Positions 1,574-63,525 of a stretch of 64,000 bases of DNA are shown here, one piece after another. The position numbers and the translations under genes are program-made. Where the stretch lies: NCBI GenBank assembly GCA_963749655.1, contig CAVVOB010000021.1:1-64000 (forward strand), given 5' to 3'. This DNA is from Nitrospirota bacterium (GTDB taxonomy: Bacteria; Nitrospirota; UBA9217). Position 1 is the first letter of the stretch, and each line of letters starts with the position of its first letter. Below the pieces are notes generated by a model. The model was not told where the DNA came from. It worked only from the letters and a program-made list of their open reading frames with translations, and made no database searches.

Positions 1574-2620
1574 TTAGGGCTCCACGAATAGACGCTTGGC
1601 GCCCTGCGGGACGGCAGCCAATAGGTCACCGATATGGGCGGCGGGATGTTTCGCCTTTCGGAGCTCCCTGTCAAGCCGTTCCCGCTTGTCCTGCGGCACA
1701 AAGATAAGCAACCCTCCCGACGTCTGGGCGTCATTCAGGAGCGCGCGGTCCGTAGCGGAAACGCCCTGCCCATACTCCACGAAGGGAGCATAATTTTTTT
1801 CATTCGCCCTCGTTCCTCCGGGAATCATGGACCGTTCTGCAAGTATTCGGGCTTCTTCAAAAACCGGGACCTGCCGCGCATGAATCTTCGCCGCGCATTT
1901 GCTTGCCGCAAGGACCTCGTTCATGTGGCCGATGAGGCCGAACCCGGTGATGTCCGTGGCCGTGCTGACGCCCACCTCTATCATGATTTCTCCGGCACGC
2001 TTGTTGAGCGTTGCCATCGACGAGGTGAACAGTTGGGCGGTCTCGGCGCTGCATGTTCCCGCCTTCAGGCCGGTGGCGATGATTCCGGTGCCGATAGGTT
2101 TCGTCAGGATCAGCGCATCGCCGGGCCTGGCCTTGGTATTGTCCAATATCGCGCCCGGGTGGATCGAGCCCAGCACGGCATAGCCGAACTTCGGCTCCTT
2201 GTCCTTGATCGTGTGACCGCCTATGATCGGCACGCCGGCCTCTTTCATCTTGTCGAAGCCGCCCTGGATGATGCGTTTATTGATCTCCCGAAAATCTTCG
2301 CTGCCCGGAAGCGCGGCAATGTTCAGGGCGACAAGAGCCTTTCCGCCCATGGCATAAACGTCGGAAAGGGAGTTTGCCGCCGCAATGGCGCCGAACCAAT
2401 AAGGATCATCGACGATAGGCGTGAAAAAGTCCGTGGTAAGGACCATGGCCAGGTCGTCCGAAATACGGTACACACCGGCGTCGTCCGCGTTCGCGGACCC
2501 GACAAGCACGTTCGGGTCGGATATCTGTGGCAATTGTCCCAGGACCTGGGACAGATCAGCAGGGCTGAATTTCGCCGCTCAACCGGCGCAGCTTGACAAA
2601 TGTGTAAGCTTTAGCTCCAT
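1574..2620 (-). CDS. selD: Selenide,water dikinase (selenophosphate synthetase), selenocysteine form
   Basis: Start ATG 2620 with SD AGGAGG; MELKLTHLSSCAG-UGA(2579-2581)-AAKFSP in frame with the 319 aa ORF; motifs DDAGVY, TTDFFTPIVDDP, ANSLSDVYAMGG, DITGFGL, DAQTSGGLL. Confidence 0.95.
2535..2553 (-). promoter_or_regulatory. Putative bacterial SECIS hairpin of selD
   Basis: TGTCCCAG-GTC-CTGGGACA perfect 8-bp stem; loop starts 34 nt after the UGA. Confidence 0.7.
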
Positions 2621-9974: not shown

Positions 9975-10050
9975 GGCGGTGTAGCTCAGTTGGTAGAGCA
10001 GGGGAATCATAATCCCTGTGTCCGGGGTTCGAGTCCCTGCACCGCCACCA
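9975..10050 (+). tRNA. tRNA with CAT anticodon, probably elongator tRNA-Met
   Basis: 76-nt cloverleaf, GGCGGTG/CACCGCC acceptor stem, TTCGAGT T-loop, encoded CCA, paired 1-72. Confidence 0.92.
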
Positions 10051-28504: not shown

Positions 28505-28582
28505 TGGCGTCCCCAGGGGGATTCGAACCCCCGTTATCGCCGTGAAAGGGCGGTGTCCTGGGCCGGGCTAGACGATGGGGAC
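28505..28582 (-). tRNA. tRNA-Glu (TTC)
   Basis: GTCCCCA/TGGGGAC acceptor stem, anticodon loop CTTTCAC, GTTCGAATC, CCA. Confidence 0.95.
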
Positions 28583-28663: not shown

Positions 28664-28739
28664 TGGTGAGCCGGCTGGGATTCGGACCCAGGACACCCGC
28701 CTTAAAAGGGCGGTGCTCTACCAACTGAGCTACCGGCCC
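28664..28739 (-). tRNA. tRNA-Lys (TTT)
   Basis: 76-nt cloverleaf, CCGCC-CTTTTAA-GGCGG anticodon arm, CCA; T-loop reads TCCGAAT. Confidence 0.9.
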
Positions 28740-57417: not shown

Positions 57418-58287
57418 CTACTTTCCCATCTTGGCGAGCCTACCTTTGGCGATTTCAGCTTCGTTCGTTCCCGGATGCTCCTTGATCACCTTGTGAAAAT
57501 ACTCTTTTGCTTTGGCTGAGTTCTTTTCGCCCAGGTAGGAAAGTCCTATTTTAAGCTTGGCTCCTGCGACCTTGTCGCTCCGGGGATAGGTCTTGATGAC
57601 TTTGCTGAAAGCGTCGACGGCTTTTTTGAAATCATTCTTGGAATAATAACATTCTCCGATCCAGTACTGCGCCATGGCCGCCTGGCTGGCTTCGGGGAAC
57701 TGAGTGATATAATTCTGGAACCCTGCGAGCGCAAGATCGAAGTTGCCCGCGTCGTAATCACTCTTCGCCTGGCGATAGGCGTCTGAGGGTTCGATGGTTT
57801 TGGGAGGCGCTTGTTTCTCGAAAGCCGCCGATCCGGTCTGTCCCGAGACTGCGCCCGCTGCAGCGCCGGCCTGCTTCAGTTTCTGCTCGAGTGCTTCGAC
57901 CCGCGCGGTGAGCTCGACAACCTTGACCCCGCGGTCGTCGACCTTCTGCGCAAGCTCGGCGATCCGATAGTTATTCTCTTCGAGCTTGCCTTGGAGCAGC
58001 TGGATATCGGTCAGCAGCTGGTCGGATTTTGCCCCGTAGTCCGCCATGACCTTCTGCACATCGACCGTTCCCTTGAGGTTCGCGTCGAGGCTGTCGACAT
58101 GCTTCTGGAGCGCCTGCACGTCCTTGTCCAGGCGCTTCTGAATATCCTGGACTCGCTGTTTCGTCGTATTCACGTCGTCGCGCAGGCCGGTCATGTCAGA
58201 TCTCGTCTTGACCAACTCGGCCTGCGGCGCGCATGCCGAGACCAGAAACAGGACAGCGAAAACAGCAATTGAGCGGCTGATCGTCAT
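57418..58287 (-). CDS. cpoB: Tol-Pal system protein YbgF/CpoB
   Basis: Lipobox VSAC, coiled coil, TPRs (AQYWIGECYY, AKLKIGLSY); follows pal. Confidence 0.9.
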   Translation of the reverse strand: MTISRSIAVFAVLFLVSACAPQAELVKTRSDMTGLRDDVNTTKQRVQDIQKRLDKDVQALQKHVDSLDANLKGTVDVQKVMADYGAKSDQLLTDIQLLQGKLEENNYRIAELAQKVDDRGVKVVELTARVEALEQKLKQAGAAAGAVSGQTGSAAFEKQAPPKTIEPSDAYRQAKSDYDAGNFDLALAGFQNYITQFPEASQAAMAQYWIGECYYSKNDFKKAVDAFSKVIKTYPRSDKVAGAKLKIGLSYLGEKNSAKAKEYFHKVIKEHPGTNEAEIAKGRLAKMGK

Positions 58288-58382
58288 GGGGACCTTTCGC
58301 GCAGAGGGAAGATAAAAAGCTGCCGGAACGGGATTACGGGGACCGTAGGAGCACGGCCCGCTTTTCCCGCTCCGGACGTCGG

Positions 58383-58934
58383 CTACTCGGCAGCAACGAA
58401 ATCGTTACGCCGGTTCTTCTGCCAGCAATCCTCCGTGCCTTGTGTGCAGACGGGCTTTTCCTTGCCGTAGCTGATGAGCGAAATACGCTTGCCCGATATG
58501 CCCAGGTCGGTGAGGTACTTCTTGGCGCTCGCTGCGCGACGCTGGCCGAGGGCCTGGTTGTACTCTATCGTGCCGCGTTCGTCACAGTTTCCCTCGATCT
58601 TGACCTTGGCCTTGGGATTGGCCTTGAGCCAGTCGGCATTCGCCTTCATGACCGCCTTGGCATCGTCGCGGACAAAGGATTTGTCGAAATCGAAATAAAT
58701 CGGCTGCAGGCCTGCCTGGGCGGCCGGGGCCTGTTCCTTCACCTCTTCAGCGGGCTTGGCCGCTTCCGGCGCAGGCGCTGCCGGCTGCTCGGCTTTCGGT
58801 TCTTCCTTCGCAGGCGCGGTCTCGGCGGGCGTCTCGGGAGCGGTGGTCACTTCAGCCTTCTTGGGACATCCCCAGAGAACAAAGACACTTAACAATAAAA
58901 TGATCGGAACATTCATACGAAAGATGCGTTTCAT
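58383..58934 (-). CDS. pal: Peptidoglycan-associated lipoprotein
   Basis: Lipobox LWGC, IYFDFDKS, IEGNCDERGT.EYNQALGQRRA, SYGKEKP, NRR. Confidence 0.95.
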   Translation of the reverse strand: MKRIFRMNVPIILLLSVFVLWGCPKKAEVTTAPETPAETAPAKEEPKAEQPAAPAPEAAKPAEEVKEQAPAAQAGLQPIYFDFDKSFVRDDAKAVMKANADWLKANPKAKVKIEGNCDERGTIEYNQALGQRRAASAKKYLTDLGISGKRISLISYGKEKPVCTQGTEDCWQKNRRNDFVAAE

Positions 58935-59140: not shown

Positions 59141-59649
59141 CTACCATCGATTTTCATGCACCCGCGAGGCATCAAATCGGTCAGTCGCAGTCCTGGTTTC
59201 CTCGGGAAAACCCAGCGGGACTAGGGAAAAGGGAACAACGGTTTCCGGCAGCAAAAAAGCTTGCGAAAGTTCGCGACACGGTCATCGGTCGGGTAGACAC
59301 CGCACCACACCGCGCCCAGGCCCTTTGCATGGGCCGCGAGCAGCATGTTCTCCGTTGCCGCCGCACAATCGAGCACCCAGTGACCGGCGTAACGTTCCAG
59401 GGCCGTATCGCCGCAGACGAGAATGGCGACCCGGGCATGCTTCAGCATCGCCGAGTAGGGATGGAATTCCATAATCTTGCCGAAGATCGCGGGATCGGAA
59501 AGGACAATGAAATGCCACGGCCGCTCATTGCCCGCTGACGGCGCGCTCATCGCGGCTTTCAGGACGTCGTTGACGGCGTCAGGGGACACCTGCTTTGCCG
59601 CGTAGAGCCGTATGCTGCGTCGCGTAAATATCGCCTCGAGTGCGTCCAT
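59141..59649 (-). CDS. Nitroreductase family flavoprotein (indel in the A run near 59255)
   Basis: RRSIR, APSAGNERPWHF, DCAAATENMLLAAHAKGLGAVW; C-terminus LPETVVPFSLVPLGFP..RVHENRW in another frame. Confidence 0.88.
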
Positions 59650-59780
59650 GGTGCACCTTCCTTTCAAGAGCTGCTGTCAGCGGCCAGCCGTCAGCTTTCA
59701 GCTTGAACCAAGAAGAGACAAAACTCCTGATTTTTTACTGCTTGCATCGATCTATGCTTTGACACAAGCTGACCGCTGCT

Positions 59781-60845
59781 TTACCCCATGAAACACTGCG
59801 GGTCGTCGGCAAGAAAGTCCTCTCCGCCTTGAGCGCGGGAATAGGCATAAGCGATCGCCCTGCAGCCCCTGCAGAGCGCCCAGCGGCTGCAGCTCCCGCA
59901 TTTCCCCGTGTATCTCTTCCGGTCCCTGAGCGCCTCGAGCACGGGAGAGGCGGCCCAGACCTCCCGCAGGGAATCGCGCCTGACATTGCCGAGCGAAAGG
60001 GGAAGCCGTCTGCAGGGCAGCACGTTGCCGTTCGGTTGAATGGTCAGCCCCGACACACCGGCTGCGCAGCCGCTTACCGCCGTCGCGCCCGCGTCTCCGT
60101 TCGCGGCGATCTTCATCTGCGCCGCGACGGGATCGCCGGTAGTAATATCGAGGTTGACGATCTCCAGGGACAGGAGCGACTGGTACAGCTCCCGGAGCGG
60201 CTCACGGTCGAGCATGCAGGACATCAGCGTCCGTCCCTTTCCCGAGGGAACCAGGCGGGAGAACCCGATGCGCTGCACGCCGGCATGGGAGCCGAAGGCC
60301 ACGACTTTTTTCGCCTGGTCCGCGTTCAGGCTCGAGAGTGTGATATTGAGGGTCACGGCGAGGCCCGCGTCGACGAGCCGCTCGATCCCCGCTGCGGCAG
60401 CGGAAAAGCTTCCCCCACCACGGATGGAGTCGTGAACATCTTCCGGACCTTCGATACTCACCTGCACGCCCTTGACGCCGAGGTCCGCGAGCTTCCGGGC
60501 GCGCACCTGGTCCACGAGCGTCCCGTTGGTCAGGAGGAACACGTCGAATCCGGTGTTTTTGATCTCCGCGAGAATGTCGAACAGATCGTGCCGCAGGAAC
60601 GGCTCTCCTCCCGTTACATTTATGCTTCGGGTAAAAGCCATATCGTAGGTCTCGGACCATGCATCGACCAGGTCCGCGGCCTCATGCAGGGCTTTCCGGA
60701 TTTCCGAAAGGGACATCTCGTCGATGCCGCGCTCGCCCTGGTAGCAGTGCCGGCACCAGAGGTTGCAGCGTTCGGTGAGATGCCACTGAAAAAAGAAATC
60801 AAAGGGCTTGTGGTCTGGCTGACCGTTATGACGGTTAGTAAGCAT
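59781..60845 (-). CDS. Radical SAM/SPASM domain protein (putative peptide maturase)
   Basis: QWHLTERCNLWCRHC (CxxxCxxC), TGGEPF, SPASM GCAAG..GNVLPC..CGSC..CRGCRA..DPQC. Confidence 0.93.
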   Translation of the reverse strand: MLTNRHNGQPDHKPFDFFFQWHLTERCNLWCRHCYQGERGIDEMSLSEIRKALHEAADLVDAWSETYDMAFTRSINVTGGEPFLRHDLFDILAEIKNTGFDVFLLTNGTLVDQVRARKLADLGVKGVQVSIEGPEDVHDSIRGGGSFSAAAAGIERLVDAGLAVTLNITLSSLNADQAKKVVAFGSHAGVQRIGFSRLVPSGKGRTLMSCMLDREPLRELYQSLLSLEIVNLDITTGDPVAAQMKIAANGDAGATAVSGCAAGVSGLTIQPNGNVLPCRRLPLSLGNVRRDSLREVWAASPVLEALRDRKRYTGKCGSCSRWALCRGCRAIAYAYSRAQGGEDFLADDPQCFMG

Positions 60846-60877
60846 GATTGATGGCAGTTAATGCGATTCCGGAAAAG

Positions 60878-61093
60878 TTACGACGGCACAGGCCGGAGCG
60901 CCCTGCATAGGAAGCAGGCGTCCTCACCCGGTCTGGCCGCCGGGCTCGTTTGTGTTGCTGACCAGCAACATCAGGTCTTTCAGCCTTTTCATTTGTGACA
61001 AAACAGGCCGGGGCTCGATTTGGCCCGCTCTTTCAGGGCCTTCCAATATGCGGCTTCCTTGAGAAGGACCTCCCTGCTCACATTCTTCTTCAT
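60878..61093 (-). CDS. Putative selenocysteine-containing RiPP precursor peptide (34, 37, 40 or 71 aa depending on UGA decoding)
   Basis: SD GGGAGGTGA 7 nt before ATG 61093; MKKNVSREVLLKEAAYWKALKERAKSSPGLFCHK-UGA-KG-UGA-KT-UGA-CCW...; first non-UGA stop is TAA 60878-60880. Confidence 0.7.
60953..60970 (-). promoter_or_regulatory. Putative SECIS hairpin for the peptide UGAs
   Basis: TGTTGCT-GGTC-AGCAACA; loop starts 26 nt after UGA1 and 17 nt after UGA2. Confidence 0.65.
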
Positions 61094-61192
61094 CCGGTTC
61101 TCACCTCCCTTCGCTCCGCATAAAATAAAGCATAGCATATTCCGGCAGTGCCGGACGACAGTCGCAGATACTCACCGCGCAGGACTTGATTC

Positions 61193-61954
61193 TCAGGGAT
61201 GGGCGACAGGCCGTCGTGTAAGCAGAGCTGCGGCTTCGCGATCGATCATCCACGTGACCGTGCCGCGCTCCGGCTTTACGAGCCCGGCAGGACAGCGTTT
61301 CGGATTGCCGTCTTCGAGGATCTCGTGCAGCACAGCCGCCTTTGCGCTGCCCGAGAGGAGGTACAGGACCTTTGCCGCATGGTTCAGGACCGGGAGCGTC
61401 AATGACACACGGTTCAGGTCCGGCGGTTCACGGAAGACGGGAACGGCAAGCCGCGTTCGTTCGCGCAGTGCCGGCGATCCGGGAAACAGGGACGCTGTAT
61501 GACCGTCTGCGCCAGCGCCGAGAAGGACGAGATCGAACACGGGGTAGCTTCCCTTGCCGAAATAGGAAGACAGGGACACCTCGTACTCCCGGGCCGCTGC
61601 TTCCGGGTCCGCTTCTCCGCGGATCCGGTGTATGTTTCCTTCCGGGATCATGACCTCGTCGAGCAGCGTTCTCTTCAGCATCCCGAAATTGCTGTTCCGG
61701 TCGCCAGGGGGCACGCACCGCTCATCGGTCCAAAAAAGGTGAAGCGAGGACCAGTCGATGCGTGCGCGGTAGGGGTCCGCAGCAAGGATGCTGAAAAGCC
61801 GTTTCGGCGTCGTTCCGCCGGACAGCGCAACGGCGACTCCACGCGCTGGTTTGTCCTTCTGCTCCGAGCAGGAAACGACAACATCGGCAGCCGCGCTGCT
61901 CAGGTCCTCGATGCTGTCGTAGACGCGCACCGCGGGATGTTCATCCTTCCTCAC
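61193..61954 (-). CDS. pgl: 6-phosphogluconolactonase
   Basis: [32 protein letters not shown]. Confidence 0.95.
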
Positions 61955-63525
61955 AGCTGTCTCCAGGACCGGCCGTCCCGCCCGATCAGCTGCTGCGCAA
62001 CCGAAGGCCCGGCAGTGCCGGCGGCATAACGGGGAATGGTTGCTGCCGTGAGCGAGGCATCGAGTTTCTCGATCGCCGGCGAGAGGATCGCCCAGGACCG
62101 CTCCACATCATCCTCGCGGGTGAAGAGCATATGGTCGCCCTGCATGCAGTCCAGGAGCACCCATTCGTAGGCATCGAGCTCCACGTCCCGCGGATAGGAG
62201 TAGTCCATTACCACGGGAGCCAGGCAGACCTTCGTACCCGGCAGCTTTGCCTGGAAAATGAGGCTCATTCCGTCGTCGGGCTGCACCCTGAGCACTAGGA
62301 CGTTGGGCTCGATGGGTCCCTCTACCGTAGGAGGAAAGAGGAAGTGCGGGACCTGGCGGTAGTGGATCGAGATCTCGGTTATGCGACGGGGAAGCCGCTT
62401 GCCCGAACGAAGATAAAAGGGCACGCCGTTCCAGCGCCAGTTGTCGATCAATATTTTCATGGCCGCGAACGTGGGGGTCTTTGATTGGGACGATACACCC
62501 TGCTCCTCGCGGTAGCCCGGCACGGACGCGCCCTGGATGGCACCGCGGTCGTACTGGCCCACGGCGATGAATTCGTCCAGCTTGTCCGCGGGGAAGGGGC
62601 GGATGGAGCGGAACACCTTGATCTTTTCATCCCGCACCCGGTCCGCCTCGAAACCTGCCGGCGGCTCCATGGCCGTGAGCGCGAGCAGCTGAAACATGTG
62701 GTTCTGGAACATGTCGCGGATCACACCGGCATCCTCGTAGTAGCCGGCGCGGTGCTCGATGCCGAGGGTCTCGGCGGCTGTGATCTGCACGTGGTCGATG
62801 TAGCGCCTGTTCCAGAGGGGCTCGAAGATCGAGTTTGCGAAGCGGAACATCAGGATGTTCTGGACCGTTTCCTTCGCAAGATAATGATCGATGCGGTAGA
62901 TCTGACTTTCCTTGTAGTAGGTATGCATGAGCGCATTCAGCTTACGGGCCGATGCGAGATCGCTGCCGAAGGGCTTTTCCACGACCACCTGGCTCCGGCC
63001 TTTTTCCTCGCTTGCCAGTCCTGTGGCGCCGAGATTGTGGATCACATCCTCGAATACCGTGGGCGGGATGGCGAGGTAGAAGAGGCGGTTTCCGCCGGTC
63101 TGATGCTTCTTCTCCAGCTCCGGGAGCCGGTCCCGGAGGTCCCGAACATAGGAATTCCGGTTGCCGTAGTCGAAGGTGGAGTAGTACAGCTGGGGGGCGA
63201 AAGCGTCCCAGGCCTTGGGGTCGAAGTCACGCGGCAGGGCGATCTTCACCGCCTCCTCCATGGCGGTCCGAAACTGCTCCGGGGTCATCTCGATCCGGCT
63301 CGTGCCAAGGATGAAGAAGTGTCCGGGCAGGATACGGTTCTTGAAGAGCCGGTACAGGGAGGGAAGGAGCTTTCTTTTCGTGAGGTCCCCCGATGCGCCG
63401 AAAATGACGATGCCCGCAGAACGCGGAATCTCCATGTCGCAGTTCCCGATGGTCCGGTACTCAGGCTCTTCCGGGGAGCTCCGCTCCAGCACCGCTTCAC
63501 CGCCTTGTTTATCATGCTGCTCCAT
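61951..63525 (-). CDS. zwf: Glucose-6-phosphate dehydrogenase
   Basis: [35 protein letters not shown]. Confidence 0.97.

Follow-up and report, generated by a model that had tools for sequence, protein, structure and literature searches.

SbtA/SbtM is the only natural system of selenium-bearing peptides modified by a radical S-adenosylmethionine (SAM) enzyme in the literature that was searched. According to published accounts, this system consists of a peptide with two selenocysteine (Sec) residues encoded by UGA, a selenocysteine insertion sequence (SECIS) placed right after the UGA, and a radical SAM/SPASM enzyme, and it ranges over anaerobic Deltaproteobacteria-type lineages (PMC9204691, PMC11002830, PMC13188914). 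In two of these accounts, SbtM is the enzyme that modifies the Sec-containing peptide (PMC9204691, PMC11002830). PapB is reported to be able to make selenoethers from Sec-substituted peptides (PMC10177961). Selenoproteins with a UxxU arrangement include, in the table of a recent survey, the NF041115 metal-binding protein and the TIGR02605 FmdB family (PMC13188914). Here, a locus of a comparable kind is described in a stretch of 64,000 nucleotides from a Nitrospirota bacterium (GenBank assembly GCA_963749655.1, contig CAVVOB010000021.1, positions 1 to 64,000), which is referred to as the window. On its minus strand, a gene of 40 codons with two internal UGAs is located directly upstream of a gene for a radical SAM/SPASM enzyme. 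The two genes probably encode a di-selenocysteine precursor and its dedicated maturase, a pair that would be SbtA/SbtM-like in function and would belong to a different family.

The reading frame of the peptide (60974..61093, minus strand) starts with an ATG at 61093-61091, and a Shine-Dalgarno sequence, AGGGAGGTGA, lies at 61110-61101, 7 nt 5' of the ATG. A AGGAGGTGA-type Shine-Dalgarno motif also precedes the start codon in most of the homologous loci. Upstream of the frame lies the gene pgl (61954-61193, minus strand), after which come a spacer of 99 nt and the strong Shine-Dalgarno sequence. Read through from ATG 61093, the frame gives MKKNVSREVLLKEAAYWKALKERAKSSPGLFCHK-TGA-KG-TGA-KT-TGA, which is a basic, leader-like segment of 31 residues followed by C32-H-K-U35-K-G-U38-K-T. 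The codon of Cys32 is located at 61000-60998, that of Sec35 at 60989..60991, and that of Sec38 at 60980..60982, and the third TGA is at 60971..60973, all on the minus strand. An in-frame TAA follows at 60880-60878, and the ATG of the enzyme at 60845 begins 32 nt further on. In the peptide alignment (A3, 66 sequences), E13, C32, K34, U35, U38, and K39 are invariant, and K12, A14, W17, P28, and K36 are nearly so. The peptide has no match in NCBIfam or Pfam, and a search with the 71-residue read-through product and three peptides of 40 or 41 residues returned no NCBIfam family at E values up to 10. The recurrence of the small open reading frame (ORF), its two TGAs, and the hairpin behind it upstream of orthologues of the enzyme is far beyond chance. 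Judged from its sequence, the tiny ORF is a genuine conserved gene whose predicted product has 40 residues, two of them Sec.

The reading of the UGA codons rests on 72 distinct homologous DNA versions of the peptide gene. Both Sec positions are TGA in all 72, never TAA or TAG, and the frame is kept after the second. The Cys codon is TGC in 58 versions and TGT in 14, and the residue behind it is His (43), Arg (25), or Gln (4). Lys stands directly 3' of the first Sec in 66 versions. The second Sec is preceded by Gly (46), Ser (21), Glu (3), or Ala (2) and is followed by Lys in every version. After U38-K39, there is a Ser in 63 of the 72, encoded by AGC, AGT, TCT, TCC, TCG, or TCA. Because this Ser is held across both the AGY and the TCN codon families, selection acts on the translated product, which implies that ribosomes pass both UGAs.

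The third position behaves differently from the first two. It is TAA in 31 versions, TGA in 27, and TAG in 14, and 12 of the 72 sequences have one or two extra sense codons before the stop. Since this codon varies freely among the three stops, the third TGA of the window is the terminator, and the peptide has two Sec rather than three. The hairpin also begins 1 nt past the third TGA, so that there is no room at that point for SECIS spacing. A third Sec was thus rejected. The preliminary description of this locus had placed the Shine-Dalgarno sequence, the ATG, the three in-frame TGAs, the GGTC-loop hairpin, the TAA, and the start of the enzyme correctly; its ORF, which ran on to the TAA, ends instead at the third TGA, and of the two or three Sec residues it had proposed, two are retained.

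Selenium appears to be needed at both positions. The protein search, which read through stops, gave 55 full-length matches from 301 Nitrospirota genomes and 16 matches from 301 genomes belonging to a second phylum, and no variant with a Cys codon (TGY) at either Sec was found in either set. Each of the 55 Nitrospirota matches carries exactly two TGAs; in the second phylum, 15 of the 16 matches carry two TGAs and one has a TAA. The absence of Cys variants, which is unusual among selenoproteins, suggests that the product needs selenium itself. A conserved leader with UGA read-through upstream of the enzyme homologues had been anticipated and was found (81 of 100 loci); the interchange of TGA and TGY that had been anticipated along with it was not seen.

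The signal for Sec insertion lies entirely 3' of the stop codon. It is a SECIS-type hairpin (60953..60970, minus strand) with a perfect 7-bp stem and a GGUC loop, and it begins 10 nt after the second UGA and 19 nt after the first. The conserved form is GTTGC-N-GGTC-N-GCAAC. Across 71 sequences (alignment A2), 99.3% of the cells are paired, and three of six pairs show compensatory changes, in 45 cells; slid controls gave only 17–61% pairing. The closing pair is C-G in 34 sequences, U-A in 32, and A-U in 4. The spacer from the second UGA to the stem measures 8–19 nt and is most often 10 nt long (35 of 72). Three loci have the GUUGCAGGUCUGCAAC form of the loop. We take this form and the GGUC loop to resemble the SECIS of E. 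coli fdhF. The SECIS-type hairpin of the preliminary description is thus upheld as a conserved and covarying element.

The same organism provides a reference for spacing. Its selD is of the Sec type (1685-2611, minus strand; …SCAG-U-AAK…, TGA at 2581-2579) and has a GGUC-type hairpin, UCCCAGGUCCUGGGA, 27 nt after its UGA, so that both UGAs of the peptide lie within a spacing that this organism uses. This comparison within the genome refers to selD alone, as a naive screen of the window for other selenoprotein genes was too noisy. The Sec-type selD had been pointed out before and is present; selA, selB, and the gene for tRNA-Sec (selC) are also in the genome, selA, selB, and tRNA-Sec on contig C39. 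A single hairpin appears to serve both UGAs, which are nine bases apart. A SECIS wholly past the stop and one hairpin for two UGAs are both unusual features.

A reading in which the first UGA is simply a stop was also considered. The product would then be a peptide of 34 residues with the Cys near its end, and the hairpin would be an element of RNA stability or termination. Gene callers would indeed end the ORF at that UGA, and no Rfam SECIS family matches the region: at the gathering score, Rfam found no SECIS or other family in the whole window besides three tRNAs, and at E values up to 10 on 60850-61110 it gave two chance matches and no SECIS model. However, both positions are TGA in every version of the gene, and the real stop varies freely; the in-frame K-x-U-K-S is kept through synonymous and codon-family changes; and the covarying GGUC-loop hairpin stands at SECIS distance. 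We regard termination at the first UGA as highly improbable. The three tRNA genes that gave the only Rfam matches at the gathering score lie at 9975-10047 (plus strand), 28508-28582 (minus strand), and 28667-28739 (minus strand).

A second RNA element is found between the two genes. It is a long GC-rich hairpin of 62 nt (60881..60942, minus strand), which in the window is followed only by a run of four Ts (60876-60873). In relatives, the conserved inverted repeat GGCAGATATGGC…GCCATATCTGCC is followed by a T-rich run. A simple promoter and terminator scan did not call the inter-gene hairpin and called no minus-strand promoter before the peptide. This hairpin may act as a partial terminator or attenuator.

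The coupling of the peptide to the enzyme was followed across genomes. Orthologues of the enzyme came from 19 relatives and from the best 80 of 548 confirmed relatives in a scan with one genome per species; there were 100 loci in total, and 93 unique loci after the removal of seven duplicates. In 81 of the 100 loci, a homologous ORF (C-x-[KR]-U-x-x-U) is found upstream of the enzyme at a distance of up to 1.5 kb. When the 93 unique loci are placed on the enzyme tree, 73 have the peptide, one has a broken copy (L049), three have too little flanking sequence, and 16 are without the peptide; the latter belong mostly to one subclade. Homologous loci keep the peptide and its hairpin, and the first two positions are always TGA, where the preliminary description had named their loss as evidence that would count against it. 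In ten genomes whose enzyme locus lacks the peptide (L020, L044, L047, L079, L088, and L095 fall outside this sample), the peptide was sought elsewhere and was present in all but G020. The nine unlinked copies are complete, with the leader, C-H-K-U-K-x-U-K-S, the stop, and the hairpin.

The two genes can also be compared at the level of whole genomes. With a threshold of E ≤1e-90, 57 of 301 sampled Nitrospirota genomes have the enzyme. The protein search found the peptide in 55, and one genome (G144) was added by the DNA pattern only. Both genes occur together in 55 of the 301 and neither occurs in 243. The enzyme occurs alone in two, G020 and G155 (in the latter, the enzyme gene has an internal TAA), and the peptide occurs alone in one, G201, which is 88% complete and consists of 390 contigs. 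The co-occurrence is nearly perfect and persists when the genes are unlinked, and this supports a functional tie between the small Sec ORF and the radical SAM/SPASM enzyme. A second phylum, reached via a Desulfobulbaceae metagenome-assembled genome (MAG), has a peptide match in 16 of 301 genomes, and the record titles of further carriers name Syntrophobacterales, Syntrophorhabdaceae, and Geobacter MAGs. The cassette is accordingly found in about one-fifth of the sampled Nitrospirota genomes and about one-twentieth of the genomes of the second phylum.

Several loci show signs of decay. An internal TAA interrupts the enzyme gene in G155:C3:9828-10814, where there is no peptide, and in G230:C10:123973-125013, where the peptide is present; in L049, it is the peptide ORF that is disrupted. 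In the unlinked loci L113 and L121, a small HAD-like gene lies on the other side of the peptide gene.

The unlinked copies bear on another reading, in which the peptide would be functionless and its UGAs would act in cis. They would sense Sec-tRNA or selenium and thereby attenuate read-through of the hairpin into the enzyme gene. In favour of such a leader, two rare recoding events are found right before a hairpin of terminator type and the radical SAM gene. Nevertheless, at least nine genomes keep the peptide fully conserved, hairpins included, away from the enzyme gene, and amino acid conservation runs along the whole peptide, unlike in regulatory leaders. There is little chance that the peptide gene is only a cis-acting leader.

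The enzyme (354 residues; 59781..60845, minus strand) matches Pfam PF04055 and PF13186. Its SAM motif CxxxCxxC is formed by C27, C31, and C34, and further Cys residues are C260, C278, C316, C319, C325, C328, and C351. In the enzyme alignment (A4, 74 sequences), C278 is conserved in at least 90% of the sequences and the other nine are invariant. The ten conserved Cys residues would fit one SAM cluster and two auxiliary clusters. The preliminary description had noted a QWHxT motif before CxxxCxxC, which may be shared with the SbtM and ACGX maturases. Among solved structures, SkfB (3.9e-13) and PqqE (1.3e-11), both of which modify peptides, are the closest in sequence, and CteB is also related. 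The ESM Atlas returned only generic radical SAM/SPASM cluster names.

No NCBIfam model (release 20) reaches its cut-off with this enzyme. The scores in bits, each with its cut-off, are 181.5 (500) for AhbD, 174 (500) for NirJ2, 166.6 (400) for GeoRSP, 158.1 (400) for ACGX, 143.6 (265) for MftC, 136.2 (515) for NirJ, 88 (381) for PqqE, and 81 (340) for PapB. SbtM (TIGR04082, the thio(seleno)oxazole radical SAM maturase) scores 127.9 against a cut-off of 350, and the match covers profile positions 199-516 of 516 (318 positions). The comparison with NCBIfam that the preliminary description had proposed thus left both the peptide and the enzyme outside every model.

The same scores raise the possibility that the enzyme is a tetrapyrrole enzyme of the AhbD/NirJ type next to which the peptide lies only by chance. 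AhbD and NirJ2 are its top NCBIfam matches, the source annotations of orthologues are either generic or read "AdoMet-dependent heme synthase", and the genome holds no better AhbD candidate. However, the scores for AhbD, NirJ2, and NirJ are far under cut-offs of 500 bits or more, so the enzyme is not an equivalog of these families, an alternative that had been raised earlier. The genome, which is 86.6% complete, has no AhbC over the cut-off (the best match has 102 of 650 bits), and the neighbours are pgl/zwf and pal/cpoB. The enzyme is also restricted to 57 of the 301 genomes of its phylum, in which it tracks the peptide almost perfectly, and because of this co-occurrence the heme-synthase label is unlikely. 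An incidental neighbourhood of a tetrapyrrole enzyme is, in our estimate, extremely improbable.

The precursor and maturase reading leads to the following proposal. The small gene of a two-gene cassette would be translated to a peptide of 40 residues, and both internal UGAs would be decoded as Sec by SelB bound to the one post-stop SECIS hairpin. The radical SAM/SPASM enzyme encoded next to it would have this peptide as its dedicated substrate. The enzyme may recognise the helical leader, whose conserved pattern is K-E-A-A-[FY]-W … N-P-G, without the aid of an RRE domain (RRE, recognition element of peptides that are made on the ribosome and modified after translation) and then act on the invariant C-terminal C-x-K-U-K-x-U-K. 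As a likely route, an auxiliary Fe-S cluster would bind Sec or Cys at its open site, and the 5'-deoxyadenosyl radical would then abstract a nearby hydrogen atom. A modification at or next to both Sec residues may be expected by analogy with SbtM, in which Hβ abstraction from Sec leads to a selenooxazole, and with thioether-forming SPASM enzymes. The product could be a selenium heterocycle, such as an SbtM-like selenooxazole, or a selenoether cross-link. Owing to the inter-gene hairpin, the message for the peptide is probably more abundant than that for the enzyme. Conservation does not extend to any exporter, peptidase or protease, or signal peptide, and for this reason the product is most likely retained inside the cell.

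What the product does can be proposed only tentatively. It might be an obligately selenium-dependent, cytoplasmic, peptide-derived cofactor or a metal- or selenium-handling molecule, made by a minimal two-gene cassette with one post-stop SECIS decoding two UGAs, widespread in anaerobic Nitrospirota and Desulfobacterota-type bacteria. Such a molecule could be seen as the selenium counterpart of mycofactocin, of PQQ, or of a bufferin-type product.

A number of observations weigh against the proposal that the peptide is the precursor of a dedicated maturase. Genome G020 (locus L016) is 100% complete and has an intact enzyme gene (60% identity), and no peptide was found in it by the DNA pattern or the protein search. 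An RRE is not detected in the enzyme by Pfam, which shows Radical_SAM and SPASM only, as the preliminary description had supposed; about 20 residues precede the CxxxCxxC motif, and they have no PqqD match. No PqqD-like or other small conserved partner gene was found near the enzyme among the ORF clusters of the 100 loci. An RRE is not required by every SPASM maturase. The top profile matches of the enzyme, although far under cut-off, are the tetrapyrrole enzymes AhbD and NirJ2. The optimal distance from UGA to SECIS in E. coli is about 11 nt, and the first UGA of the peptide, at about 19 nt from the hairpin, lies beyond it. The genomes are mutually related and mostly MAGs, so that the counts given above show a pattern and are no formal statistic. 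Finally, the genomic data show the gene, its conservation, the signals for Sec decoding, and the coupling to the enzyme, and from them Sec insertion, the role of the peptide as substrate, its modification, and the nature and cellular role of the product are all inferred.

Some of these points would also suit another reading, in which the peptide is a genuine mini-selenoprotein with two Sec residues, a partner of the enzyme and not its substrate. Its task might be to donate or carry selenium, to act as a redox partner, or to chaperone a metal, while the enzyme acts on a small molecule; it could also serve selenium homeostasis. Its Sec residues are invariant and have no Cys forms, the enzyme is without an RRE, and the best profile likeness is to the small-molecule enzymes AhbD and NirJ2. 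In addition, three of the nine unlinked peptide genes adjoin genes for Sec synthesis or insertion, selB in two genomes (L114, L117) and selD in one (L121). On the other hand, the long, conserved, leader-like N-terminus with its invariant Glu and near-invariant Trp resembles a recognition sequence, the order of peptide gene, hairpin, and SPASM enzyme is the classic layout of a precursor and its maturase, and the nearest solved relatives of the enzyme modify peptides. A mini-selenoprotein that is not a substrate seems unlikely, and a precursor with its maturase is preferred.

The surroundings of the cassette vary between lineages. In the window, it sits between zwf-pgl (61193-63525, minus strand; pentose-phosphate) and pal-cpoB (57418-58934, minus strand; Tol-Pal). 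An upstream zwf is found in 25 of the 100 loci. A gene of the nitroreductase family (59141..59667, minus strand; Pfam PF00881) is frameshifted near a T-run at about 59257-59262, so that two frames are needed to read it; tblastn with an intact homologue passes from frame 3 to frame 2 within the gene. The shift of one base in the T-run means either that the gene is truly a pseudogene or that the assembly is wrong in this homopolymer. The preliminary description had counted this gene as part of the system. It was rejected as a member, since a nitroreductase occurs within about 2.1 kb of the enzyme in only 13 of the 100 loci, which are L040 and members of the clade of the window, and since the copy in the window carries a frameshift; the gene is a lineage-specific neighbour.

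To find further partners, all ORFs with 80 residues or more in the 100 loci were clustered, and no conserved partner beyond the peptide and the enzyme was found among these clusters. Directly downstream of the enzyme in the 93 unique loci, there are YceI-like genes (12), SDR genes (10), ICMT-like methyltransferase genes (10), ArgS (6), Pal (4), and nitroreductase (2), and the remainder are singletons or have no such gene. ICMT/PEMT-like membrane methyltransferase or YceI-like genes follow the enzyme in L032, L039, L043, L047, L050, L064, L086, and others, and they could be lineage-specific tailoring or handling genes. The SDR genes that directly follow the enzyme in 10 of the 93 loci are absent from the window. 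In L012 (G014:C16), the enzyme frame runs without a stop into a downstream NAD-dependent epimerase/dehydratase-type (SDR) gene, and the resulting frame of 687 residues is possibly a natural fusion of the two.

Public sequencing runs were also searched. None contains half of the stretch; the best DNA run has 0.23 of the sampled words, and RNA runs have 0.07–0.08. Four soil metatranscriptome runs from two studies contain contigs that come from relatives and not from this organism, several of which in each run cover 60954-60997, that is, the core and the SECIS; one contig of 288 nt covers 60810-61097, and another of 196 nt covers 60951-61146. These contigs give a weak hint that the peptide genes of relatives are transcribed, considering that DNA can occur in RNA libraries and that genes cannot be ranked by the depth of contigs.

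The cassette is small enough for direct testing, as it consists of a peptide of 40 residues and an enzyme of 354. If the precursor and maturase reading is correct, it would represent a second natural family of selenium-containing peptides modified by radical SAM enzymes, unrelated to SbtA/SbtM and much more widespread. Its messenger would be a natural case of one post-stop SECIS for two nearby UGAs, which would be useful for selenopeptide engineering.

A full-text search of the literature found no description of this peptide or its motif; supplements, which could list the family, were outside its scope. A selenoproteome table from 2026, in its available part, lists the SbtA "selenobacteriocin" TIGR04081 and nothing with this motif (PMC13188914). 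Like SbtA/SbtM, the present cassette has UGA-encoded Sec and a SECIS in a peptide gene beside a radical SAM/SPASM gene, and the Gly before the second Sec in 46 of the 72 versions recalls the G-U motif of SbtA. The two systems also differ. The peptide has no match to TIGR04081, and the enzyme falls under the TIGR04082 cut-off and is without the N-terminal part of SbtM of about 200 residues. Instead of GGUG or SGUG, the motif is C-x-K-U-K-x-U-K at the extreme C-terminus, in which the Sec contexts are K-U-K and [G/S/A/E]-U-K and Gly never follows either Sec. The range, which takes in Nitrospirota and the second phylum, is also wider.

The maturases of ranthipeptides (PapB, CteB) and of sactipeptides (SkfB), PqqE, and MftC share with this enzyme the CxxxCxxC motif, the seven-Cys SPASM domain, and a short conserved peptide gene directly upstream. 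The enzyme reaches none of the profile cut-offs of these families, and it differs from them in having no RRE domain or PqqD-like partner. The highest profile scores, an equal overall length, and the SPASM architecture connect it to AhbD and NirJ, from which it is set apart by scores of about one-third of the cut-off, by the lack of AhbC or an Ahb context, and by its strict coupling to the peptide gene. The UxxU selenoproteins NF041115 and TIGR02605 also have two Sec residues three codons apart, so that closely placed UGAs have a precedent; they are domains of folded proteins, unlike this peptide of 40 residues with its SECIS past the stop, and neither model is matched. In contrast to the substrates of PapB, CteB, SkfB, PqqE, and MftC, the predicted natural substrate here has Sec, and never Cys, at both key positions. 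A Sec peptide with a radical SAM/SPASM enzyme is a known kind of system, and the family described here is, as far as could be found, a new one of that kind.

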